A stretch of DNA of 64,000 nucleotides from Candidatus Magasanikbacteria bacterium RIFOXYB2_FULL_38_10 (GTDB lineage: Bacteria; Patescibacteriota; Patescibacteriia; Magasanikbacterales; UBA10003). Position 1 is the stretch's first letter, and each line of letters starts with the position of its first letter. The stretch is from the NCBI GenBank assembly GCA_001783145.1, contig MFQT01000016.1, forward strand, positions 3,796-67,795, read 5' to 3'. A program made the position numbers and the translations under genes. The notes under the pieces were generated by a model. The model made no database searches, was not told the DNA's origin, and saw nothing but the letters and a program-made list of their open reading frames with translations. Shown one piece after another: positions 3,470 to 14,934 of this stretch.

Positions 3470-4486
3470 ATGAATTTAAGAAACAAATACGCTCTTTTTT
3501 ATGTTTTAGGCCTCCTTAGTATTATTGTACCGGTTATTTTAATGCCGGCTTCTTTAAGACAAAACCTTAAAGCCTACATCATAATCTTTATTGTTTGGTT
3601 GGCCTTAAGAATCTACATCAACTACTGGTATGGCAAAAAAATAAATTTACCCAACACCGCTCATTTTTGGTCCAGTCTTTTTGTGGATGTGGGTTTTTTA
3701 TTCATGCTTGGATTTGATCGCCAACTTTTGCCCGCTCTTAGTATTTTTAAAGAAGCGCTTAATATCTTTAAAGTTAACTGCAAAACTTTCCTAAAAATTC
3801 TTGGCTGGCTTTTAATTCCAGCGGTGCTTTTAATCATACTTAATATTTTTGACACTTTAACGAATCTTAAATACGTTAATTACAGTTTTCCAATTTATCT
3901 TTTGTTGTCAGCTTTAAGTTTTATCATTGGACTTTGGACGCAAATTGTCTTAATCAGATTAACCAGTGCCAGCTTAACTAAAGAACCTCTTAATGAAAAA
4001 ATCCTTTACACGGAAAGCTGGAGGGACACCGCGCCATTTTTATGGATTTCTATTTTAATGGGTCTTATCATCATGGCCGGCACAATTCTTTTAGTGATTC
4101 CCGGCTTAATTTTTACCATCTGGTATTTATTTTCCCTTTACATCTTTGCTGTTGAAGGCAAGCGCGGTTATAGCGCCTTGCAAAGAAGCAAAGAACTGGT
4201 GCAAGGAAAATTTTGGGCAATAGTGTGGCGTCTGGTTGTCACTGGGTTTTTTTATGGGTTGATCATCTTTGTAATCATCGCCATTCCCACTTTAATCATT
4301 GGATTGATCACTCAATTTAATCAATTTTCTTCTGTCTTTTCTACTATGCCCTGGTGGCTAAACGCCCTGCAAAGCGTGACAGCTATCTTGGTCCTACCTT
4401 TAAATATCGGCCTCATGACTATAATGTTTAAAGATTTGAAAGATAATTCCCCCGCCCCGGAATCAATCCCGGCTAATCTAAACTAA
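3470..4486 (+). CDS. polytopic integral membrane protein, function unknown
   Basis: About 8 hydrophobic segments with no recognisable catalytic motif. Confidence 0.45.
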   Translation: MNLRNKYALFYVLGLLSIIVPVILMPASLRQNLKAYIIIFIVWLALRIYINYWYGKKINLPNTAHFWSSLFVDVGFLFMLGFDRQLLPALSIFKEALNIFKVNCKTFLKILGWLLIPAVLLIILNIFDTLTNLKYVNYSFPIYLLLSALSFIIGLWTQIVLIRLTSASLTKEPLNEKILYTESWRDTAPFLWISILMGLIIMAGTILLVIPGLIFTIWYLFSLYIFAVEGKRGYSALQRSKELVQGKFWAIVWRLVVTGFFYGLIIFVIIAIPTLIIGLITQFNQFSSVFSTMPWWLNALQSVTAILVLPLNIGLMTIMFKDLKDNSPAPESIPANLN

Positions 4487-4488
4487 TT

Positions 4489-6051
4489 ATGTATCAGCCG
4501 GTAATAGGACTAGAAATTCACCTTCAATTAAAAACTAAATCCAAAATGTTCTGCTCTTGCGATAATCGCGGAGAATATTTAGAGCCCAACACCACCATTT
4601 GTCCTATTTGTACAGGGCAGCCCGGCACGCTCCCGGTTCCTAATCAACAAGCGGCCGAGTGGGCGGTAAAAACCGCTCTGGCTTTAAATTGTCAAATTAA
4701 TAAAATCAGTAAGTTTGATCGCAAGCACTATTTTTATCCCGATTTACCCAAGGGCTATCAAATCTCCCAATACGATTTGCCTGTTGGCGAAAAAGGTTTT
4801 GTGGAAATAGAAACTAAAGAAGGAGAGGAAGCGCTGGATAAATTAGTAGAGGAGGAAATACACGGGACAGAAAAAAAATCCAAGCCTTTAAAAAATAAAA
4901 AAAAGATTAGGCTGATCAGAATGCACATGGAAGAGGACGCGGCTAAAAATATACACTTGAGTGGCGATACTTTGGTGGATTTTAATCGCGCCGGCACTCC
5001 GTTGGTAGAAATTGTGACCGAGCCGGATATTTCTTCCAGCGCCGAGGCCAAAACTTTTTTGCAGGAATTGCAAACCATTGCCAGATTTTTACATATTTCC
5101 GATGCGGATATGGAAAAAGGACATCTGCGCTGTGATGTGAACGTTTCTCTACGACCGGAAGGCGACACTAAATTTTATCCCAAGACAGAAATCAAAAATT
5201 TAAATTCTTTTAAAGCCGTGGAAAGGGCCATTGAATACGAAATAAAAAGACAAAGTGAGTTATGGGATAAAGGAGATATTCCGGAAAAATTAACCACCCG
5301 CGGCTGGAACGATGCCAAACAAATTACCGAAGAACAACGTGTTAAAGAAGGTGCCGAAGATTATCGTTATCTACCTGAACCAGATATTCCTGCTTTTGAT
5401 TTGACCAAAATTGCCGAGAGGGCTCAAGCTAATTTGCCAGAATTGCCAGCGCAAACCAGAAATCGTTTTGTAGAAGAATACGGACTTTCCAAATCCGATG
5501 CCCGCATCTTAACTTCCGAACCGGAGTGGGCGGAATTTACAGAAAATGTTTTTAGTGAAGCTTGGGAATGGCTTACTTCCCTGCCGGAGATGGAAGGAAC
5601 GGAGGACGAAATTATGGACAAAAATCGCGCCCGGTTAGGAAAACTAGTTGGCGGCTGGCTCACTTCTAAATTAATGGGGCTGATGGCGGAAAACAAAATT
5701 GATATTAAAATTTTAAAAATTACCCCGGAAAATTTTGCCGAGTTTATCAGTTTAATTTATACCAATAAAATTAACAGCGCCAACGCCCAATTATTACTGG
5801 CCAAAATGTTAGAAGCCGGCGGCGACCCTTCCATAATTATGGAAGAGAATAAATTAGGACAAGTAAAAGATGATGATTTAATTAGTAAAGCAGTGGATAA
5901 TGTAATAAAAATGAATCCGGATCAAGTAGAGCAATACAAAAACGGAAAAGTGGCCGTAATACAATTTCTGATAGGCAAAGTGATGAAGGAAACACAAGGA
6001 CAAGTTGATCCGCAGACCGCGAAGGAAATGCTGGAAGAAAAGTTGAAATAA
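4489..6051 (+). CDS. gatB: aspartyl/glutamyl-tRNA(Asn/Gln) amidotransferase subunit B
   Basis: N-terminus MYQPVIGLEIHLQLKTKSKMFCSC...CPICTGQPGTLPV...FDRKHYFYPDLPKGYQISQ is canonical GatB. A C-terminal GatB/YqeY-like tail is present. Confidence 0.9.
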   Translation: MYQPVIGLEIHLQLKTKSKMFCSCDNRGEYLEPNTTICPICTGQPGTLPVPNQQAAEWAVKTALALNCQINKISKFDRKHYFYPDLPKGYQISQYDLPVGEKGFVEIETKEGEEALDKLVEEEIHGTEKKSKPLKNKKKIRLIRMHMEEDAAKNIHLSGDTLVDFNRAGTPLVEIVTEPDISSSAEAKTFLQELQTIARFLHISDADMEKGHLRCDVNVSLRPEGDTKFYPKTEIKNLNSFKAVERAIEYEIKRQSELWDKGDIPEKLTTRGWNDAKQITEEQRVKEGAEDYRYLPEPDIPAFDLTKIAERAQANLPELPAQTRNRFVEEYGLSKSDARILTSEPEWAEFTENVFSEAWEWLTSLPEMEGTEDEIMDKNRARLGKLVGGWLTSKLMGLMAENKIDIKILKITPENFAEFISLIYTNKINSANAQLLLAKMLEAGGDPSIIMEENKLGQVKDDDLISKAVDNVIKMNPDQVEQYKNGKVAVIQFLIGKVMKETQGQVDPQTAKEMLEEKLK

Positions 6052-6170: not shown

Positions 6171-8210
6171 ATGCCCCAATTTAAGATTAAAGTCAAAATT
6201 AAGCCAGCTGGAGACCAACCTCAAGCCATTGAAAAATTATCCCAAGGGTTGCAAAAAGGATACTCCGCGCAGACCTTGCTTGGCGTCACCGGCTCTGGCA
6301 AAACCTTTACCGTTGCCAATGTAATTGCCAAAACAGGGTTGCCCACTCTTGTAATTGCCCACAACAAAACTTTGGCCGCCCAGCTCTGTAATGAATTTCG
6401 TGAAATTTTTCCGGATAACGCCGTGGAATACTTTGTTTCCTATTATGATTACTACCAACCAGAGGCCTACCTTCCCTCTTCCGATACCTACATAGAAAAA
6501 GAAGCGATGATCAATCAAGAAATTGATCGCTTGCGCCATGCCTGCACCCAAGCACTACTCTCCCGCCGTGATGTTATTATCGTCGCTTCTGTTTCCGCCA
6601 TTTATGGCTTGGGCTCACCCAAAGAATATGAAAAAATTGTTTTGCATTTAAGACGCGGCCAAAAACTTAGCCGACGCGAAATGCTAGAACAACTTATTGA
6701 AATGCAATTCACCCGCACTAATAGTGAATTGAAACGCGGCTCTTTCCGCCTAACCGGACAGGTTTTTGAAATTATGCCGGTGAATGAAGAAATGATCTAT
6801 CGTTTTGAAATTGGCGAAAAAATAAATTTGATTGAACTGGTTGACCCACTTACTCGCCAAATAAAAAGAGAACTGCCCGATGCTTGGTTTTTCCCTGCTC
6901 GGCATTATGTAGCCAGCCCCGAGTCGCGAGAAATGGCTTTTAAAAGTATCCGCCAAGAACTGGAACAGCAGTTGCAACTATTTCAAAAACAAGGAAAAAT
7001 TTTAGAATACGAGCGCCTAAAACGCCGCGTTAATTACGATTTGGAACTCATTAAAAATATAGGTTATTGCAATGGCATAGAAAACTATTCTCGTCATTTT
7101 GAGGATCGCGCTACCGGCGAGCCACCTTTTACGTTACTGGACTATTTTAAAGAAGGTACTGGAAAATTTTTAACTGTGCTCGATGAATCCCACGTGACAG
7201 TTCCGCAAATCCGCGCCATGTATAGTGGAGACAAAGCCCGCAAAGATATTTTGGTAGAGCATGGCTTTCGCCTCCCCTCTGCACGTGATAATCGGCCCCT
7301 AACCTCTGATGAGTTCAACCAAAAGATTGAGCAAGTAATTTATGTCTCCGCCACGCCAGCCGAATTTGAAATCCAAAATAGTGAGCAAGTGGTGGAACAA
7401 ATTGTCCGCCCCACTGGTTTAATTGATCCGGAAATAATCATCAGCCGAATTACTGGAAAAGGAAAAGAAAAATCACAAATTGAAGATTTACTGATTAGAA
7501 TTGACGAACGCATTGCCAAAAAAGAAAGGGTTTTGGTCACCACACTCACTAAAAAAATGGCAGAAGATTTATCCGATTATCTGCTAAAGAAAAAAATTAA
7601 AGTAAAATATTTGCATAGTGGTATTGATACTTTGGAACGCATTGAAATTATTACCGCCTTGCGCAAAGGTGAGATTGATGTGATTGTGGGTGTGAATTTG
7701 CTTCGCGAAGGATTGGATTTGCCAGAAGTTACACTCGTGGCCATTTTAGACGCGGACAAAGAAGGATTTTTGCGCAGCCGCACCAGTTTAATTCAAACCA
7801 TTGGTCGCGCCGCCAGAAATGTCAACGGCCAAGTTGTTATTTACGCCGACCAAATCACTGAATCCATTAAAATAGCAGTTGGAGAAACAGAAAGACGCCG
7901 CGAGATTCAGATCGCTTATAATAAAAATCATGGTATCACACCTAAAACAATTGAAAAAACCATCCGCAACATTTTGGAAGAATTTGGCATCACCGCCAAA
8001 GCCAAAGTCCCTAAAAGACGCACGTTATCAGAAACCACCAAGTTGGATATTTTAGGAGACGGCCGACCGGTGACGGAAATCATCAAAGAAAAAGAAAAGC
8101 TGATGCGCGAGGCGTCGGCGGAATTGGAATTTGAATTAGCTGCTATTTTGCGCGATGAAATAAGTGAACTTAAAAAAATAAATGCGACCGCGCAAAAGGC
8201 TAAAAAATAA
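6171..8210 (+). CDS. uvrB: excinuclease ABC subunit B
   Basis: Walker A GVTGSGKTFT and the UvrB blocks YFVSYYDYYQPEAY and LLREGLDLPEV, with a C-terminal UvrB/UvrC-interaction motif (AILRDEISELKK). ATG at 6171 is in frame with the longer listed ORF. Confidence 0.9.
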   Translation: MPQFKIKVKIKPAGDQPQAIEKLSQGLQKGYSAQTLLGVTGSGKTFTVANVIAKTGLPTLVIAHNKTLAAQLCNEFREIFPDNAVEYFVSYYDYYQPEAYLPSSDTYIEKEAMINQEIDRLRHACTQALLSRRDVIIVASVSAIYGLGSPKEYEKIVLHLRRGQKLSRREMLEQLIEMQFTRTNSELKRGSFRLTGQVFEIMPVNEEMIYRFEIGEKINLIELVDPLTRQIKRELPDAWFFPARHYVASPESREMAFKSIRQELEQQLQLFQKQGKILEYERLKRRVNYDLELIKNIGYCNGIENYSRHFEDRATGEPPFTLLDYFKEGTGKFLTVLDESHVTVPQIRAMYSGDKARKDILVEHGFRLPSARDNRPLTSDEFNQKIEQVIYVSATPAEFEIQNSEQVVEQIVRPTGLIDPEIIISRITGKGKEKSQIEDLLIRIDERIAKKERVLVTTLTKKMAEDLSDYLLKKKIKVKYLHSGIDTLERIEIITALRKGEIDVIVGVNLLREGLDLPEVTLVAILDADKEGFLRSRTSLIQTIGRAARNVNGQVVIYADQITESIKIAVGETERRREIQIAYNKNHGITPKTIEKTIRNILEEFGITAKAKVPKRRTLSETTKLDILGDGRPVTEIIKEKEKLMREASAELEFELAAILRDEISELKKINATAQKAKK

Positions 8211-8239
8211 ATAAACGCTACAAAATTGATAATAAAAAA

Positions 8240-8263
8240 ACTCTGATCATTGCTGATCGGAGT
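8240..8263. terminator. bidirectional terminator between convergent uvrB and HD-domain gene
   Basis: ACTCTGATC / GATCGGAGT stem with one G-U pair, A-run upstream and T-run downstream. Confidence 0.55.
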
Positions 8264-8278
8264 TGTTGTTAGACTAAC

Positions 8279-9166
8279 TTACTTGAGGCCGTTCAAAACC
8301 TCAAAGTATCGCCGCGCCAAGGCCATTTCCACAGCCAGACTCATGGCGGCCGGGGTATAAATTTCCACCGAAAGATTATTATCCCGCAGGTGTCCCAATA
8401 TTCTAGGCTTCAATTCTTCCAGTTCTTTTGTCGATTTGGCCCAAGCGGCAGTACTAACGCTTGTCTTGGCCAAGCTATCCACAACAAAGAAGGCGCCAAT
8501 CTCATCAGCCATGTCAGGAGATTCCTGAATTACAGCCTCGAGCATTACCCTTGCCTCTTCACTATCCACAAAGTCAAAGGAAAAACCATTTGAAAGTCCC
8601 TTAGCAGTGGTTCGCACTTCGCCCAACTTAAAGTGTAAGGCGCAGACGCGGGCCAAATATTCCACCTGCTCATAAGTCAGCCCAAAACCAGTCAGAAAAT
8701 GCTTCATTTTCAAGACGATTTCGCCAGAGGCAATTTCATGTCCCTTGAAACGGAAATTTGGCCGTATTCCGTCCGGTTTCATTCCCTGGAACTCCCGCCG
8801 GGTGAACTTTCCTAAATCATGCAGAGCCGGTGCAATAACCAGACACAGTTCCCACTTATTAAAGTGGCCGACCAACTCCGCGCCCAATCTCATCCCAGCC
8901 GGAGAAAAAACAGGACCAATAAATTGACCAGTATATCCTCTAGCATTATCAATCTTTTTACTGTGGGTGATGACTCCCCACTCATGCCAATTGGTTTCGT
9001 GCATGCGAGGATCATCAGGGTTCAGGGCAAAAGCTTGGCGGTAAGGGTCTTTCTTATCCTGATACAATTTGTCGTTCAGGATTAAAGCCCGTGCCAGCAT
9101 GGGCATAATTTCAAAGAGCCTTGTCTGGATCGTGTCTGCATCCATCTTCTTCTGTTCAAAAATCAT
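8279..9166 (-). CDS. HD-domain phosphohydrolase-like protein, encoded in the GC-rich island
   Basis: H...HD pattern (WHEWGVITH ... ALHDLGKF). Codon usage and GC are clearly higher than in the flanking genes. Confidence 0.55.
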   Translation of the reverse strand: MIFEQKKMDADTIQTRLFEIMPMLARALILNDKLYQDKKDPYRQAFALNPDDPRMHETNWHEWGVITHSKKIDNARGYTGQFIGPVFSPAGMRLGAELVGHFNKWELCLVIAPALHDLGKFTRREFQGMKPDGIRPNFRFKGHEIASGEIVLKMKHFLTGFGLTYEQVEYLARVCALHFKLGEVRTTAKGLSNGFSFDFVDSEEARVMLEAVIQESPDMADEIGAFFVVDSLAKTSVSTAAWAKSTKELEELKPRILGHLRDNNLSVEIYTPAAMSLAVEMALARRYFEVLNGLK

Positions 9167-9192
9167 TTTCTTCTCCCTCTAAAGCTACCTTA

Positions 9193-9220
9193 ATTTTATA
9201 CTTTTTTAGGATTCTGTCAA
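9193..9220 (-). promoter_or_regulatory. sigma70-like promoter for the HD-domain gene
   Basis: On the minus strand: TTGACA, 16-nt spacer, TAAAAT, then a GAGGGAG RBS before the ATG at 9166. Confidence 0.5.
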
Positions 9221-9225
9221 GGCTA

Positions 9226-9254
9226 TTGACAAAAAGCCCAAAATGTGCTATACT
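9226..9254 (+). promoter_or_regulatory. consensus sigma70 promoter for the small-peptide operon
   Basis: Exact TTGACA (9226-9231), 17-nt spacer, TATACT (9249-9254). It is divergent from the HD-gene promoter. Confidence 0.6.
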
Positions 9255-9283
9255 TTAAGGTTAAATTTGTTATTTTAAAGCTG

Positions 9284-9340
9284 ATTTCTCCCTATTTGTG
9301 CCTTAAAAATCTTTAAGATAAGGTAGAAATAGGGAGAAAT
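9284..9340 (+). promoter_or_regulatory. 5' leader stem-loop with 14-bp perfect stem
   Basis: ATTTCTCCCTATTT (9284-9297) is the exact reverse complement of AAATAGGGAGAAAT (9327-9340), with a 29-nt loop. It lies between the promoter and the RBS (GGAGGG) of the 72-aa ORF. Confidence 0.5.
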
Positions 9341-9388
9341 CCCAAGGCAAGTGCTATACCCAATTTCCACGGGTTAAAGTGGGAAAAG

Positions 9389-9607
9389 ATGGAGGGAAAA
9401 ATGAGTCTTTCATTAAAGATCCGGTTGTGGGGATTAGCGGCTCTGGTAGTACTGGCGGGAACAGCCGCCATCATTAATGAGGGCGCGGACACTGAGCCGG
9501 CCAACAATTCCACCCAGGAGACGAATCACCACGACCCCAACAGCTTCGAGGGGTGGTGCGATTCCATCAACAACAGCAACGTGAGTTGCCCCGGCCAAGA
9601 CAAGTAG
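9389..9607 (+). CDS. small secreted/exported peptide (72 aa) with signal peptide and Cys pair
   Basis: After MEGKMSLSLKIRLWGLAALVVLAGTAAI (signal-peptide-like) comes an acidic/polar region with WCDSINNSNVSC. RBS GGAGGG is 7 nt upstream. The gene is GC-rich. Confidence 0.4.
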   Translation: MEGKMSLSLKIRLWGLAALVVLAGTAAIINEGADTEPANNSTQETNHHDPNSFEGWCDSINNSNVSCPGQDK

Positions 9608-9671
9608 TTCCCTGTGCCCTAGTGGTACCATACCCAAGTCGCGAAAAAATCGTTCAAAAACGGAGGGACTA

Positions 9672-10055
9672 ATGAATAACGGCGATCTCGTCTTCAACAG
9701 CAGCCCCAACCACATCAACGACAAAGTAGTGGAAGTCGGTGTGGTCAAGGCATGGGGGTGGGAGCAAATCTTGGGAACTCGGGGCATCTCGGCTCGAGTT
9801 GTCCAGTTCCGGTCTCCTGATGGACAATATCGGATCAACTACACCGGCGATATGCTGACAGCGGAGGAAGGCTACGAGTTCCTCAAGCAGCACTTCAAGC
9901 TACGGCAGGAGAGGTCGGGCGATGGCGACATCAAGGGGATATCCTTCCCCCGCTACCGCAAGTCCCGGACCATGAAAGAACTCGCCACCTTCGTAAAGGA
10001 GATGTTCGACACCCTGGCCAGGATCCCTGGTCATGCCTGGCTGACCGTTTCCTAG
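9672..10055 (+). CDS. hypothetical protein (127 aa) in GC-rich island
   Basis: Long ORF on the same strand as the upstream peptide gene, with plausible non-repetitive composition. No motif recognised. Confidence 0.35.
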   Translation: MNNGDLVFNSSPNHINDKVVEVGVVKAWGWEQILGTRGISARVVQFRSPDGQYRINYTGDMLTAEEGYEFLKQHFKLRQERSGDGDIKGISFPRYRKSRTMKELATFVKEMFDTLARIPGHAWLTVS

Positions 10056-10329
10056 AACAACCTGTTCCTAACTCGCCCATGGCTAACGCTGTGGGCTTTT
10101 TTATAATTGCTAGTGAGCCCACAAGCGGAAGCGTGCTTCCATTTGGGGCGAACGACGCAATTTCAAGCGCCGTGGCAGCGCTTATTTTTACGCCCTCACC
10201 ACTCATCGCCCATCTTGACTTTTCAGCCCAAAAATGTTACAGTAACAACAAACCTAACTTATCTACTACCCCCTAGCAAAATTTTGCGGGGGAATTTTGG
10301 GCTTATACAATCAATATTTAACCAATTTT

Positions 10330-12981
10330 ATGCAAGACAAAATCATTATCAAAGGCGCACGCGAACACAATTTAAAAAATATCAGTTTAGAAATTCCCCG
10401 CAACAAAATGGTGGTCTTTACTGGTTTGTCCGGCTCGGGCAAATCCTCACTCGCATTTGACACCATCTTTGCCGAAGGTCAGCGCCGCTACATAGAATCC
10501 CTATCCGCCTATGCGCGGCAGTTTTTGGGCGGCATGCAAAAACCAGATGTTGATGAAATTGAGGGTCTTTCCCCTGCTATCTCCATTGATCAAAAGGCTC
10601 ACAGCGCCAATCCCCGCTCCATCGTAGCCACTATCACGGAAATCTATGATTATCTGCGTGTTCTTTTTGCGCGTATTGGAGATCCACATTGTCCAATCTG
10701 CGGCGGAAAAATAGAAAAGATGACCACTGATGAAATCAAAGAACATATTTTTAAAAAAATAGATGAGATCAAAAAAGCCAACACGGCCAAAGATCCGTTA
10801 GAACTCTCTATTCTTTCTCCAGTAGTGCGCGGTCGCAAGGGTGAATATTATCAAATGCTTTATGATATTTATAACTCCGGATATTTGGAAGCGCGGGTGG
10901 ATGGCAAAATCAAAAGTTTGCGTAATCAAATAATTTTGGATAAAAATGCCAAACACACAATTGAAATTGTCGTGGATAAAATTCCCATGGCGGAAAAATT
11001 TAAGACAGCGCAATCGGAATTAGGAAAATACAAAGTGAAAGATTTGAGCTCCAAAGAGCGTCTGGCCGAAGCGATTGCCAATGCTGTGGAATTATCTAAC
11101 GGCATTGCCGCCGTAATTTTTCCCGATAAAAGCGAACAAATTTTTAGTACCGAATATTCTTGCCCCAACGATGGTTACAGTTTCCCAGAAATTGAGCCCC
11201 GTCTTTTCTCATTTAACAGTCCTTATGGATATTGTGAAGCCTGTACGGGACTTGGCACAGAATCTTTATGGAGTGATAATGTTTGTCCGGTTTGCCAAGG
11301 CAAAAGATTAAACCCCAACGCGCTTAATGTTAAAGTTGGCGGTAAAAATATTTGGGAAATAACAACTTTAAACGTTAGTGAAGCCCGAAACTTCTTTGAA
11401 GATTTAGCCAAAAAATTAAATACTACGGAGGAAGAAATTGCCGGAGCAATTTTAAAGGAAATTCAAAACCGCCTGGGATTTATGTTTGACGTGGGTTTGC
11501 ATTATCTAACTTTAAATCGCAAGGCTGGTACTCTTTCCGGTGGAGAGGCGCAACGCATTCGCTTGGCTTCACAAGTGGGCACTAAACTTGTCGGTGCACT
11601 TTATGTTTTGGATGAACCAACAATTGGGTTGCATCAAAAAGACAATGCTCAATTAGTTTCCACTTTGCGTAAAATTTGTGATAGTGGCAACAGTATTATC
11701 GTGGTGGAACATGATGAAGATACAATTTTAGAAAGCGATTGGATAACAGACATCGGTCCCGGAGCCGGCAAACACGGCGGGGAAATAATTTTTTCCGGCC
11801 CCTTGGAAAATTTACTGGCGAACAGCAAAACAACAAAAGAAAAATCTTCATGTCAAATTATCGGCGATCCAGCCAAATCCTTAACCGGCAAATATTTGCG
11901 CGGCGAGTTAAAAATACCGCGGCCAACACAACGCCGCAGTGTTGACAAAAGCCAACCCAGAATAAAAATAAAAGGTGCCAAAGAACATAATTTAAAAAAT
12001 ATCAATGTAGAAATACCTTTGCGCCGTTTTGTGGCCTTAACTGGAGTATCTGGATCGGGTAAATCAACTTTGATGCATGATATTTTACTTCCAACCGTGG
12101 AAAGCCGTTTGAATCGTTTAGCTTTACCCAAAAATATTTCCAGCGTGAGCGGCACAGAATATCTTGACCGCGTAATTGTTATTGATCAATCGCCCATTGG
12201 CAGAACCTCTAGAAGCAACCCCGCTACCTACACCAAGGCTTTTGATCACATCAGAGAAATTTTTGCCGCCACAGAAGAAGCCAGAATCCGCGGTTTTAAA
12301 CCTAGCCGTTTTAGTTTTAATGTGCCGGCCACACCGTCCGAGGAAGGCAGCCACAGGGGCCTGGGCGGACGCTGTGAGAATTGCGAAGGCAAAGGCGTGC
12401 TAGAAATTGAAATGCATTTTTTGCCCAGCGTGCAGATTGTTTGCGACGTTTGCAAAGGCAAAAGATTTAACCAGGAAACTTTGCAAGTGCACTACAAAAG
12501 CAAAAACATCTCTGATATTCTAAACATGACCATTGCCGAAGCTGAAGATTTTTTTAAAGATATTCCGTTCATTTATGACAAGCTCAAAATTCTTAATGAG
12601 GTGGGTTTGGATTATCTAACGCTTGGACAATCAGCCACCACCCTTTCTGGCGGCGAGGCCCAACGTATCAAATTATCACGCGAATTAGCCAAACACGGAA
12701 CTACAAAAACTCTATACTTATTAGATGAGCCCACCACCGGCTTGCATTATGATGATGTGAGAAAATTACTGGAAGTCTTGGAACGATTAGTTAATCAAGG
12801 CAATACCATAATGGTGATTGAACACAATTTGGATGTAATCAAATGCGCCGATTGGATTATTGATTTGGGCCCGGAAGGCGGCGATGGCGGCGGCGAGGTG
12901 GTGGCAGAGGGTACTCCGGAAGAAGTGGCTAGACAAGTTGGCAGTTATACGGGAAAATATTTAAAGAGGATGCTAAAATAA
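10330..12981 (+). CDS. uvrA: excinuclease ABC subunit A
   Basis: MQDKIIIKGAREHNLKNISLEIPRNKMVVFTGLSGSGKSSLAFDTIFAEGQRRY is the canonical UvrA N-terminus. It has two ABC cassettes (second Walker A TGVSGSGKST), LSGGE signatures and zinc-finger Cys clusters. Confidence 0.9.
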   Translation: MQDKIIIKGAREHNLKNISLEIPRNKMVVFTGLSGSGKSSLAFDTIFAEGQRRYIESLSAYARQFLGGMQKPDVDEIEGLSPAISIDQKAHSANPRSIVATITEIYDYLRVLFARIGDPHCPICGGKIEKMTTDEIKEHIFKKIDEIKKANTAKDPLELSILSPVVRGRKGEYYQMLYDIYNSGYLEARVDGKIKSLRNQIILDKNAKHTIEIVVDKIPMAEKFKTAQSELGKYKVKDLSSKERLAEAIANAVELSNGIAAVIFPDKSEQIFSTEYSCPNDGYSFPEIEPRLFSFNSPYGYCEACTGLGTESLWSDNVCPVCQGKRLNPNALNVKVGGKNIWEITTLNVSEARNFFEDLAKKLNTTEEEIAGAILKEIQNRLGFMFDVGLHYLTLNRKAGTLSGGEAQRIRLASQVGTKLVGALYVLDEPTIGLHQKDNAQLVSTLRKICDSGNSIIVVEHDEDTILESDWITDIGPGAGKHGGEIIFSGPLENLLANSKTTKEKSSCQIIGDPAKSLTGKYLRGELKIPRPTQRRSVDKSQPRIKIKGAKEHNLKNINVEIPLRRFVALTGVSGSGKSTLMHDILLPTVESRLNRLALPKNISSVSGTEYLDRVIVIDQSPIGRTSRSNPATYTKAFDHIREIFAATEEARIRGFKPSRFSFNVPATPSEEGSHRGLGGRCENCEGKGVLEIEMHFLPSVQIVCDVCKGKRFNQETLQVHYKSKNISDILNMTIAEAEDFFKDIPFIYDKLKILNEVGLDYLTLGQSATTLSGGEAQRIKLSRELAKHGTTKTLYLLDEPTTGLHYDDVRKLLEVLERLVNQGNTIMVIEHNLDVIKCADWIIDLGPEGGDGGGEVVAEGTPEEVARQVGSYTGKYLKRMLK

Positions 12982-13208
12982 AAAATGGTAGTAAGAGTGG
13001 TTTAAATTATTTGTAAAAAACTATAGCGGAAAAAGATCAGAAAATTAGAGATTTTTTTGAGGAAAAATAGTGGTCGGAAAACTTTTTGCTGAAGGCAAAA
13101 AGGCAAACGGGCAACCACGTAATTTTTCCGAAGTAAAAAATCCTAATTTTCAATCTCTTGAAGCGTGTTTTTTAAAAATAATTTAAGCCACTAGATAAAA
13201 CATCATTT

Positions 13209-14444
13209 ATGATCAATCTTAAAAATATTCCTAACTCCCCCGGCATCTACCTCTTTTATAATTCCCAAAAAGAGTTGATTTATGTTGGTAAAGCCACTTC
13301 CTTGAAAAATCGCGTGCGCAGTTATTTTGCTGGCCCTCAAAATCCCAGGCCAATTGAAATAATGATCCACGAAGTCATCAATATCAAATGGATCACCACT
13401 GATTCTGTTTTAGAAGCCATTATTTTAGAAGGTAATTACATTAAAAAATACCGTCCCAAATATAATATTGACTGGCGCGATGATAAAAGCTGGAATTATC
13501 TTGTTATCACTCGTGAGAAATTTCCCAAACTTTTGGCTGTGCGTGAACATGAAATAAAACAGGGTGCCAAAGTGGCGGAATCAAAATATAAATATCTCTT
13601 TGGGCCCTATCCCAATTTGAATACCCGGGCCACTTTAAAAATTTTACAAAAAATATTTTTCTTTTCCACTTGTAAGCCAAACCAAAAACGGCCGTGTTTT
13701 AATTATCAAATTGGTTTGTGTTTAGGCGTTTGCACCGGAGAAATTACAACTAAAGATTATTCACATAAAGTCATTGCGCCCTTAGTGCTTTTTCTTAAAG
13801 GCCAAAAAAAAAGTTTGCTGAAAAAATTGACGAGCGCAATGAAATTGGCGGCTAAAGAAAACAACTTTGAAGAAGCCAGCCGCTTGCGCGATCAGATTTG
13901 GAATTTACAAAAAATCCAAGACATCGCACTTTTGAATAAAGATTTTGTCAAAGAAAAAGAAGCGACTCAAAAAAAATCAGTCCTTATTGAAGGATATGAC
14001 ATCTCTAACTTGGGCACCACTGGCAAAGTTGGCAGTTTAGTTGTCTTTAATGAACTCGGTGCAATTAAATCAGAATATAAAAAATTTAATATCAAAACAG
14101 TTACTGGACAAAACGACGTAGATTGTTTAAAAGAAATTTTAAAACGCCGTCTTAATCATTGGGAGTGGCCTTTACCAGATTTAATTTTGGTTGACGGTGG
14201 CAAACCGCAAGTGAACGCGGCTAAACAGATATTAAATGAAGAAAAAATAAATTTGCCACTGGTGGGTATTGCTAAAGGTAAGGCTCGTAAAAAAAATGAA
14301 TTTCATTTTGCAGCGGCTAAGAACAGTGAGGAAATTATTAAATGGGCTTTGCAAAACAAAGATCTACTTATAAAAGTCCGCGACGAAACTCATCGTTTTG
14401 CCATTCAATTTCAAAAACAAAAAAGAAAAATCCCGCGCGGTTAA
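13209..14444 (+). CDS. uvrC: excinuclease ABC subunit C, short form lacking C-terminal HhH region
   Basis: GIY-YIG N-terminus (PGIYLFYNSQKELIYVGKATSLKNRVRSYF), UvrBC-interaction helix (EEASRLRDQIWNLQKI) and an RNase H-like endonuclease region. The protein is only 411 aa, against about 600 for canonical UvrC. Confidence 0.75.
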   Translation: MINLKNIPNSPGIYLFYNSQKELIYVGKATSLKNRVRSYFAGPQNPRPIEIMIHEVINIKWITTDSVLEAIILEGNYIKKYRPKYNIDWRDDKSWNYLVITREKFPKLLAVREHEIKQGAKVAESKYKYLFGPYPNLNTRATLKILQKIFFFSTCKPNQKRPCFNYQIGLCLGVCTGEITTKDYSHKVIAPLVLFLKGQKKSLLKKLTSAMKLAAKENNFEEASRLRDQIWNLQKIQDIALLNKDFVKEKEATQKKSVLIEGYDISNLGTTGKVGSLVVFNELGAIKSEYKKFNIKTVTGQNDVDCLKEILKRRLNHWEWPLPDLILVDGGKPQVNAAKQILNEEKINLPLVGIAKGKARKKNEFHFAAAKNSEEIIKWALQNKDLLIKVRDETHRFAIQFQKQKRKIPRG

Positions 14445-14481: not shown

Positions 14482-14934
14482 TTAGTTGACTTGGAAATCG
14501 TAATCAAAGGGATTTTTCTTACCCTTAGGATAAAAATTGATCACCAACTTCTGTTGATCTCTTTCCACACGCACGGCAAATTCATAAATTACCTTGGGAC
14601 GATGGAACATCTCGCGAGACTTTTTCTCCAACCAATTGGGCTGCTGGACCTTGGCAAACCACTCTCGCAAATAAGACTGGTTATAGTATGGATCTTGAGG
14701 CACCCCAACAAAGGCGACCCAGTAATTCAAACTATGGACGATGCTGTTGTCTAATTCCACTTGCACGTTAGACAAATCTCCACCAGACTGAAGAGCCTTA
14801 TTTAGCAAACGGGTCAAGGCTAAATAAATCTTCTTCAAAGGGTCTGACTCAAAAAAAAGACTATGCTTTAAATCGCCATGCGGGTAATCCGGCGAATAAG
14901 CAATGGCACAAAAATAAACCTTAAGAACTTTCAT
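14482..14934 (-). CDS. hypothetical protein
   Basis: 150-aa ORF convergent with uvrC. No recognisable motif. Confidence 0.35.
   Translation of the reverse strand: MKVLKVYFCAIAYSPDYPHGDLKHSLFFESDPLKKIYLALTRLLNKALQSGGDLSNVQVELDNSIVHSLNYWVAFVGVPQDPYYNQSYLREWFAKVQQPNWLEKKSREMFHRPKVIYEFAVRVERDQQKLVINFYPKGKKNPFDYDFQVN

Follow-up and report, generated by a model that had tools for sequence, protein, structure and literature searches.

We analysed a 64,000-nt stretch of the genome of a groundwater bacterium of the Candidate Phyla Radiation, Candidatus Magasanikbacteria bacterium RIFOXYB2_FULL_38_10 (contig MFQT01000016.1; hereafter, the window), focusing on an islet located exactly between the nucleotide excision repair (NER) genes uvrB (stop 8210) and uvrA (start 10297 or 10330). 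The islet contains a 295-aa HD-domain open reading frame (ORF) on the minus strand, back-to-back promoters, a small membrane-peptide ORF and a 127-aa ORF. We favour, with moderate confidence, the view that it represents a small accessory element composed of two independent back-to-back transcription units, which occupies a variable uvrB-uvrA slot of Ca. Magasanikbacteria and the second unit of which is foreign. Unit 1 would encode a stand-alone HD-domain metal-dependent phosphohydrolase from a sparse and scattered family, with nucleotides or phosphorylated nucleic-acid ends as substrates. Unit 2 would constitute a self-contained, moron-like cassette. It would begin with an extended −10 promoter of the host type, from which a ~130-nt leader containing a conserved long stem-loop is transcribed; downstream come, in turn, the genes of a small single-helix membrane peptide and of a 127-aa soluble protein, and an intrinsic terminator. 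Judging from sequence, unit 2 is most likely DNA acquired horizontally from a source with a higher GC content and common to one sister lineage only. As a working guess, the membrane peptide and its soluble partner could form a fast-evolving accessory or conflict-type pair, for instance, a membrane-acting peptide with a cytoplasmic partner.

A first-pass annotation of this DNA had proposed a horizontally acquired, GC-rich island encoding an HD-domain phosphohydrolase and a bacteriocin/immunity or signalling-peptide pair. The results described below support an islet of accessory nature and probable horizontal origin that encodes an HD phosphohydrolase; the bacteriocin locus is not supported and could not be demonstrated.

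Base composition of the islet

The islet is the GC maximum of the window, the mean GC content of which is 38.8% (standard deviation, SD, 3.3 for 2033-nt windows): both the top 2033-nt window (48.1%–48.4%) and the top 900-nt window (53.3%) coincide with it. The remaining GC peaks correspond to core features, namely, FtsH, a cNMP-binding protein and tRNA-His. The first-pass annotation had contrasted an islet of ~55% GC with flanks of ~30%; the elevation itself stands, but the islet as a whole is at 48.4%, the value of ~55% applies to the right half only and the contrast is smaller than claimed because the flanking genes are at 42% rather than 30% (Table 1). Sliding-window analysis produced a non-uniform profile, and in tetranucleotide distance positions 9261–10100 fall within the top 0.5% of equal-size windows, compared with the top 5% for the HD gene. 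The GC content at third codon positions (GC3) is 0.75 in the 127-aa gene and 0.71 in the small ORF, versus a mean of 0.373 (SD 0.069) over 47 long ORFs of the window, which places the 127-aa gene 5.5 SD above the host mean. Because GC3 of this gene is high and its GC2 ordinary (0.39), the excess resides at silent sites and is not driven by amino-acid content. The suggestion of horizontal acquisition is, accordingly, plausible for the right half, the genes of which are also absent from 80 related genomes, but less so for the HD gene, in which the GC excess is moderate.

The uvrB-uvrA slot in related genomes

The uvrB-uvrA-uvrC cluster is conserved across Patescibacteria. Among 80 loci with UvrB relatives, obtained by scanning species-representative genomes, the gap between uvrB and uvrA ranges from 33 bp to 5.6 kb. 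The two genes are directly adjacent in some relatives, as the first-pass annotation had asked (33–66 bp in L028, L029, L033 and L035), and in the closest Magasanikbacteria (UvrB 67%–74% identical) the gap measures 0.65–3.7 kb and accommodates DUF218 membrane proteins, lipoprotein-like ORFs, BipA, DUF3592 or a dGTPase-like HD protein. The cargo of the relatives has the GC content of its own flanks, and relatives of the three islet products, singly or in synteny, are absent from all 80 loci (0/80). Thus, the slot is naturally variable and carries a compositionally deviant filling only in this lineage and its sister. Since the slot varies in all relatives, the islet is to be seen as the local version of a changeable filling and not as a singular event in an otherwise fixed operon; the clean placement between two NER genes noted by the first-pass annotation holds.

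Variable slots between conserved core genes gather accessory genes by recombination. The uvrB-uvrA slot resembles such hotspots in its conserved flanks, in the broad range of gap sizes and in cargo that differs by lineage, but departs from them in that the cargo of the relatives is mostly housekeeping-looking and of native GC content, with foreign ORFans confined to this genome and its sister. A classical genomic island or integrative element was also considered and rejected: there is no integrase or transposase, tRNA target or flanking direct repeat.

Comparison with the sister lineage

The sister lineage is a close relative from one metagenome (SRR22387951), represented by contigs L011 and L012. 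Its UvrB is ~94% identical to that of the window at the protein level over the C-terminal 253 residues, with synonymous (dS) and nonsynonymous (dN) divergence of 0.86 and 0.034, respectively. L012 carries an HD homologue at the orthologous site (56% identity; dN 0.36, dS saturated, dN/dS 0.14), and the hairpin between uvrB and the HD gene is retained there, a T>C change in it being compensated by A>G, which marks the uvrB-HD intergenic region as orthologous. L011 encompasses, in this order, a GC-rich unit in which a singleton ORFan of 156 aa is equipped with a separate extended −10 promoter and a separate terminator, a promoter (TTGACA-17-TATAAT) and leader of the window type, a 31-aa ORF and a homologue of the 127-aa protein. 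The leader folds like that of the window (z −6.4) and displays one compensatory change of a C-G to a U-A pair. The 127-aa homologue is of equal length and without indels (76% amino-acid and 85% nucleotide identity; dS 0.32, dN 0.13), with a dN/dS of 0.42, the lowest of the six frames, and with 20, 14 and 24 differences at the three codon positions. The 31-aa ORF occupies the position of the small ORF of the window and is wholly hydrophobic, devoid of the polar tail and the Cys pair. The distinct small peptide and the extra ORFan unit of the sister together indicate that the content of the slot is modular and undergoes turnover. Furthermore, the divergence estimates are discordant between UvrB, the HD gene and the 127-aa gene, which is suggestive of exchange or replacement; given that strong codon bias can depress dS, such discordance is not a proof of exchange.

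The moron-like cassette

Morons, which have been described in prophages, are recognised as autonomous units by the presence of a dedicated promoter and terminator and by a GC content that deviates from the surroundings (PMC3594210). The rightward cassette (9226–10102) is similar to morons in having a near-consensus promoter and an intrinsic terminator of its own, in its composition (GC 55% versus 42% in the flanks; GC3 0.75 versus 0.40) and in the modularity suggested by the additional unit of this kind in the sister. Unlike morons, it lies between the chromosomal core genes uvrB and uvrA, outside any prophage, and is associated with no phage gene, PHROG match or IMG/VR copy. The two divergent promoters of the islet, TTGACA-16-TAAAAT leftward and TTGACA-17-TATACT rightward, are exactly as the first-pass annotation had them, with 11/12 consensus matches each; the three ORFs, of 295, 72 and 127 aa, are likewise confirmed. 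The extended −10 type of promoter is also used elsewhere in the window. A motif in the promoter spacer, AGCCCAAAAT, common to the cassette and uvrA promoters, was dismissed, being not enriched in the window (17 matches versus 15.5 expected).

The ~130-nt leader of the cassette is predicted to be strongly folded (dG −43.6; z −4.2), with a second hairpin at ~9360–9392, upstream of the ribosome-binding site, and the Shine–Dalgarno sequence is not sequestered in the predicted folds. A search of Rfam yielded nothing at the gathering score, and relaxed thresholds recovered only generic miRNA-precursor hairpin models over 9283–9341. Of the two possible start codons of the small ORF, ATG 9401 (68 aa) is most likely the genuine one, because GGAGGG precedes it by 5 nt and its position is maintained in the sister; the same GGAGGG stands 5–6 nt before both ATG 9401 and ATG 9672, the start of the 127-aa gene, and both copies are kept in the sister. 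The product of the small ORF consists of an N-terminal hydrophobic helix, LWGLAALVVLAGTAAII, preceded by K/R residues and followed by a polar tail with two Cys; its hydropathy maximum of 2.31 is consistent with a single transmembrane helix (for which the hydropathy is 2.3–2.6). Antisense ORFs of 74–134 aa are also open in the right half, and a public gene caller annotated an antisense ORF of 65 aa instead of the small one on the sense strand.

The 127-aa gene displays strong codon periodicity (GC1/2/3 = 0.55/0.39/0.75). Its product is an ORFan with a single homologue, that of the sister (76% amino-acid identity), in searches of 5.8 billion and 1.84 billion proteins, and no relatives were detected in phage and IMG/VR collections. 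Neither this protein nor the small ORF product has a family match in Pfam, NCBIfam, PHROGs or PADLOC. Residues 4–74 weakly match residues 204–274 of the ATP-binding subunit ModC (PDB 3D31; E 0.004), and the AlphaFold2 (AF2) model, built from two sequences, is unusable (predicted local distance difference test score, pLDDT, 46). Beyond the true homologue, an exhaustive HMMER search added only P0013, a 1290-aa protein from the representative library, through the short motif ARIPGHxW. P0013 is composed of ~10 tandem repeats of ~30–40 aa, with the motif (A/L)ARIPGHxW after an amphipathic helix, and these repeats match the last 24 residues of the 127-aa protein (summed E of the repeats, 1.6e-11).

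Independent assemblies of the genome end or start at 9420, 9458/9459, 9475, 9575 and 9658, that is, inside or just past the small ORF, and we suspect that strain-level indel heterogeneity is responsible for these breaks. A diversity-generating retroelement was considered as their cause and discarded, since the window holds no second copy of 9389–9660; a reverse-transcriptase gene was not scanned for.

The HD-domain protein and its family

The HD gene has its own promoter, downstream of which GGGAGAAG is found 4 nt ahead of the ATG. The assignment of its product to the HD-domain phosphohydrolases, made by the first-pass annotation, is corroborated by several observations. Residues H61, H68, H116-D117, H143, H178 and D230 are invariant in 10/10 homologues, which we collected from the 5.8-billion-protein set in addition to 55 metagenomic loci. 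The H...HD...D metal-ligand set of the HD superfamily is present, in extended form (H, HD, H, H, D), and the AF2 model (pLDDT 91.6) predicts a mainly helical protein, as befits the all-helical HD fold. The Pfam match to HD (PF01966) is weak, at 19.1 bits versus a cut-off of 22, and homologues P0004 and P0006 have precomputed matches to the same family. The best, and the sole significant, matches in PDB by both sequence and fold (hidden Markov model and Foldseek searches; Foldseek probability 1.0, E 4e-4) are chains 3WFO–3WFS, deposited under the titles ‘Poly A polymerase’ and ‘tRNA processing enzyme’. In the alignment with 3WFO every motif position is matched, the ligands of the HD protein falling on the HDIGK, HD, H and D positions. 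Matches in a viral fold library are weak and of the same kind.

The closest likeness is thus to the HD domain of class II tRNA nucleotidyltransferases/poly(A) polymerases, which provides the best sequence and fold matches and with which HDxGK, the second and third His as well as the last Asp align, the H...HD...H...H...D set being invariant in the window family. By contrast, the window protein is stand-alone, without the nucleotidyltransferase head, shares only ~17% identity (template modelling score 0.44; E ~1e-3) and belongs to a family with a distinct conserved N-terminal segment, NPDD...WHxWG..TH. The resemblance serves as a lead and does not amount to family membership. The HD motif region also has weak profile similarity to the Cas3 HD nuclease (TIGR01596/PF18019), but the score of 26 bits is below the curated cut-off of 43.45, the protein has no helicase domain, no cas gene occurs among the annotated neighbours of the family and no CRISPR array was noticed; on account of score and neighbourhood, identity as a Cas3 HD nuclease was rejected.

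A further HD protein fills the slot in another Patescibacteria metagenome-assembled genome, L021 (UvrB 72% identical), where positions 3595–4692 encode, on the minus strand and in the same orientation as the HD gene of the window, a 365-aa dGTP-triphosphohydrolase-like protein (NCBIfam E 1e-34). This Dgt-like protein and the window protein share slot and orientation, and both are candidate nucleotide hydrolases of the HD superfamily beside NER genes, but they are not homologous at the family level (hhalign probability 0.2%), and the window protein lacks the HDxGxxxFGH signature.

The HD family is sparse, widely scattered and uncharacterised, being found in CPR (Candidate Phyla Radiation) bacteria, in one Nanoarchaeota genome and on contigs of 21%–74% GC, where its members mostly have native GC content. 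All-versus-all clustering of the neighbours identified no partner gene conserved across lineages. The Pfam-annotated neighbours include NT5C, two NUDIX and two DHH proteins, family-B polymerase (PolB), DNA methylase and OMP (orotidine monophosphate) decarboxylase, and are enriched in nucleotide/DNA metabolism, a functional theme only. In an unrelated lineage (L107), a family member 33% identical to the window protein (9881–10786, plus strand) is located between topA and the tightly linked uvrB-uvrA, in the order topA-HD-uvrB-uvrA, which represents a second, independent HD-uvrB adjacency. The HD protein most likely hydrolyses nucleotides or phosphorylated nucleic-acid ends, a function inferred from these comparisons.

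Origin of the cassette and competing explanations

The case for a horizontal origin of unit 2 is made by composition and patchy distribution, and is limited to these because no donor or homologue of the 127-aa protein was found outside the two lineages in protein, phage and IMG/VR searches. Several further points weigh against the favoured view. Mobility genes, tRNAs, direct repeats and att-like scars were looked for and none was found at the islet: there is no recombinase ORF within 8211–10296, the nearest tRNA is 20 kb away and the direct repeats anticipated as insertion scars at 8264–8280 and 10270–10296 do not exist. An inverted repeat (8263–8285/10229–10251; 74% complementary, with a 9-nt perfect core) was examined as a scar and judged to be due to chance, because part of the left arm is missing from the sister. 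The HD gene, which lies at the corresponding position in the sister and has a moderate GC excess (~2 SD), may have been in place for a long time and not be a recent arrival. No islet-free strain was found among contigs with identical UvrA or UvrB, and codon bias could account for part of the lower dS of the 127-aa gene. Finally, the one apparent occurrence of the islet in a divergent genome, which would have been a proof of recent transfer, is an assembly chimera between a Peregrinibacteria genome and the present one. This contig (L005) is 100% identical to window positions 7790–9575 and ~65%–75% identical to the left of 7790, where a Peregrinibacteria genome provides the match near the junction (98.4% identity over 3.2 kb). 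In that genome uvrB naturally lies in the order Rrf2-EF-P-uvrB-PALP, an arrangement seen in 24 contigs. The switch point at 7790 is a 30-nt stretch in UvrB helicase motif VI that is exact in both genomes. As the candidate is chimeric, no transfer event is directly demonstrated.

L005 is a public MEGAHIT contig (ENA ERZ27254852 k141_348459), in which Rrf2, EF-P and the 5′ part of uvrB are joined to the 3′ part of uvrB and the HD gene; the resulting hybrid 678-aa UvrB, a singleton from one contig, is present in protein databases. A similar pattern is observed on the uvrA side in L010 (ANAN16 scaffold_86066), with a switch inside uvrA at ~10545, and is probably the same chimera artefact.

That nothing in the islet is foreign, so that it comprises native, vertically inherited lineage-specific genes with a GC content shaped by amino-acid composition, mRNA structure or expression-linked codon choice, appears improbable. 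The shared location of both units in the sister lineage, along with an orthologous uvrB-HD intergenic region, the use of the same promoter type elsewhere in the window, the lack of detected mobility signatures and the coincidence of other GC peaks with core genes (FtsH, the cNMP-binding protein and tRNA) would all fit such an origin; it is at odds with the silent-site nature of the GC3 excess of the 127-aa gene, the absence of the cassette from all other relatives, which have different genes in the slot, and the turnover implied by the additional GC-rich singleton ORFan cassette of the sister. We consider it highly implausible that the right half is non-coding, be it a GC-rich structured RNA or a set of chance ORFs. 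Codon periodicity, the intact 384-nt ORF of equal length and without indels in the sister (85% nucleotide identity), the minimum of dN/dS in the annotated frame, the canonical GGAGGG conserved ahead of both starts and the lack of an Rfam match argue against this possibility, notwithstanding that RNAs often stand out as GC-rich segments of AT-rich genomes, that antisense ORFs are open and one of 65 aa was preferred by the gene caller, and that the two 127-aa genes differ with no more than a weak bias towards third positions.

Two other explanations concern the function of the products. In one, the islet is a toxin-antitoxin-like or phage-exclusion module, in which a type-I-style membrane-depolarising peptide with a structured 5′ untranslated region is restrained or assisted by the 127-aa protein, and the HD protein acts as a nucleotide-depleting or nuclease defence enzyme. 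The hydrophobic peptide of 31–68 aa with a single transmembrane helix and a structured leader has the properties of type I toxins; the long conserved leader with its compensatory change (z −4.2 and −6.4), fast evolution, lineage restriction, foreign GC content and the variable slot, the weak Cas3-HD similarity and the dGTPase-like HD protein in the slot of L021 point in the same direction. Yet no antitoxin RNA was recognized, a consensus promoter scan, by itself weak evidence, finding no minus-strand promoter-like site at 9260–10100; moreover, the Shine–Dalgarno sequence is not sequestered, a downstream protein gene is atypical of type I systems, the cassette has no PADLOC match, the HD matches are below the cut-offs and the neighbours of the HD family elsewhere resemble housekeeping nucleotide metabolism rather than defence islands. 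On balance, such a module is unlikely. Still less can be said for the bacteriocin/immunity or signalling-peptide pair, a reading that has the 72-aa product undergo export, cleavage and disulphide bonding, and the 127-aa protein serve either to protect the producing cell or as a sensor of the peptide. The arrangement of K/R residues, an N-terminal hydrophobic segment and a polar tail with two Cys is what prompts this idea, as does the predicted co-transcription of the small ORF with a small downstream protein from a strong promoter. However, the supposed mature part is not conserved, the sister peptide of 31 aa being all-hydrophobic while the promoter, leader, Shine–Dalgarno sequence and 127-aa gene are kept; inspection revealed neither a double-glycine leader nor a GG motif ahead of a cleavage site, genes for an ABC exporter, a peptidase, modification or a two-component system are lacking within 10 kb and the products have no match in the family databases searched. 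We regard this pair as very unlikely, and the corresponding suggestion of the first-pass annotation is not borne out.

Other features of the uvr cluster

The islet is delimited on the left by the hairpin between the convergent uvrB and HD genes: as it is bordered by a run of A on one side and by a T-rich stretch on the opposite side, it is likely to be a bidirectional terminator and the left edge of the islet. The right edge is set at the uvrA promoter-like site, where the native control sequences of uvrA restart (Table 1). Between this site and the uvrA start codon, a near-perfect palindrome or hairpin, CCCCCTAGCAAAATTTTGCGGGGG, at 10269–10292 in the 5′ region of uvrA could be a regulatory site. 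Genes in the vicinity include gatB, uvrB, uvrA, uvrC, a methyltransferase-like gene, miaA and miaB.

Table 1. Coordinates and properties of the islet, its components and the adjoining uvr genes in the window
Feature	Position	Strand	Properties
uvrB	6093/6132–8210		Identity by Pfam; GC 42%; flank GC3 0.40
Hairpin ACTCTGATCA-TTGC-TGATCGGAGT	8240–8263		Between convergent uvrB and HD genes; from sequence
Islet	8264–10296		GC 48.4%
300-nt peaks in islet			GC up to 57.7%
295-aa HD-domain metal-dependent phosphohydrolase (predicted)	8279–9166	−	ORF; GC 47.4%, GC3 0.51
Promoter region	9167–9388		GC 33.8%
HD gene promoter TTGACA-16-TAAAAT	9220–9193	−	11/12 consensus matches
Cassette promoter TTGACA-17-TATACT	9226–9254	+	Extended −10 TG; 11/12 consensus matches
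Leader stem-loop	9283–9341	+	Inverted-repeat scan; 23-nt arms, 91% complementary
Right half	9389–10055		GC 55.0%
Small ORF	9401–9607 (68 aa, ATG 9401) or 9389–9607 (72 aa, ATG 9389)	+	ORF; GC3 0.71
127-aa soluble ORFan	9672–10055	+	GC 56%; Shine–Dalgarno GGAGGG
Intrinsic terminator of cassette	10075–10102	+	9-bp stem (10075–10096; 6 G-C pairs), then TTTTTT
uvrA promoter-like site TTGACT-17-TACAGT	10215–10243	+	With TG; consensus scan
uvrA	10297/10330–12981		Identity by Pfam; start 10297 or 10330; GC 42%; flank GC3 0.40
uvrC	13209–14444		Identity by Pfam

Two further observations were made in the cluster. The spacer between uvrA and uvrC (12982–13208), an AT-rich stretch of 227 nt, is predicted to fold in its entirety into one imperfect hairpin of ~200 nt (dG −72.3 kcal/mol, z −8.9; 70% match to its own reverse complement over 209 nt), single-copy in the window and in every fetched locus, and could represent an element resembling miniature inverted-repeat transposable elements or another long palindromic element within the uvr cluster. 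Just past uvrC, a lineage-specific 150-aa ORFan (14482–14934, minus strand; GC3 0.49) has its own extended −10 promoter-like site at ~15037–15009; it has no Pfam match and no relative among the 80 related loci.

Implications

CPR bacteria have tiny genomes that are thought to leave scant room for accessory DNA. With the variable slot documented here, the otherwise conserved uvrB-uvrA-uvrC cluster offers an example of a place where novel genes are acquired and turned over in genomes of this kind, and in one lineage this slot is filled with compositionally foreign ORFans under predicted strong promoters. It is a long shot, but conceivable, that the HD protein is a nucleotide- or DNA-end-processing enzyme functionally linked to NER and, independently, that the promoter-bearing GC-rich ORFan cassettes (the peptide and 127-aa pair here, the 156-aa ORFan in the sister) represent an undescribed, exchangeable conflict or host-interaction module of CPR bacteria that is parked in the uvrB-uvrA slot; the tie to NER is proposed because two unrelated lineages have a member of the HD family beside uvrB, while a third has a Dgt-like HD protein in the slot. 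In other respects this is an ordinary small genomic islet, from which we claim no new mechanism. Nevertheless, the nucleotide- and DNA-metabolism neighbourhood of the HD family gives a concrete biochemical hypothesis that would be cheap to pursue.

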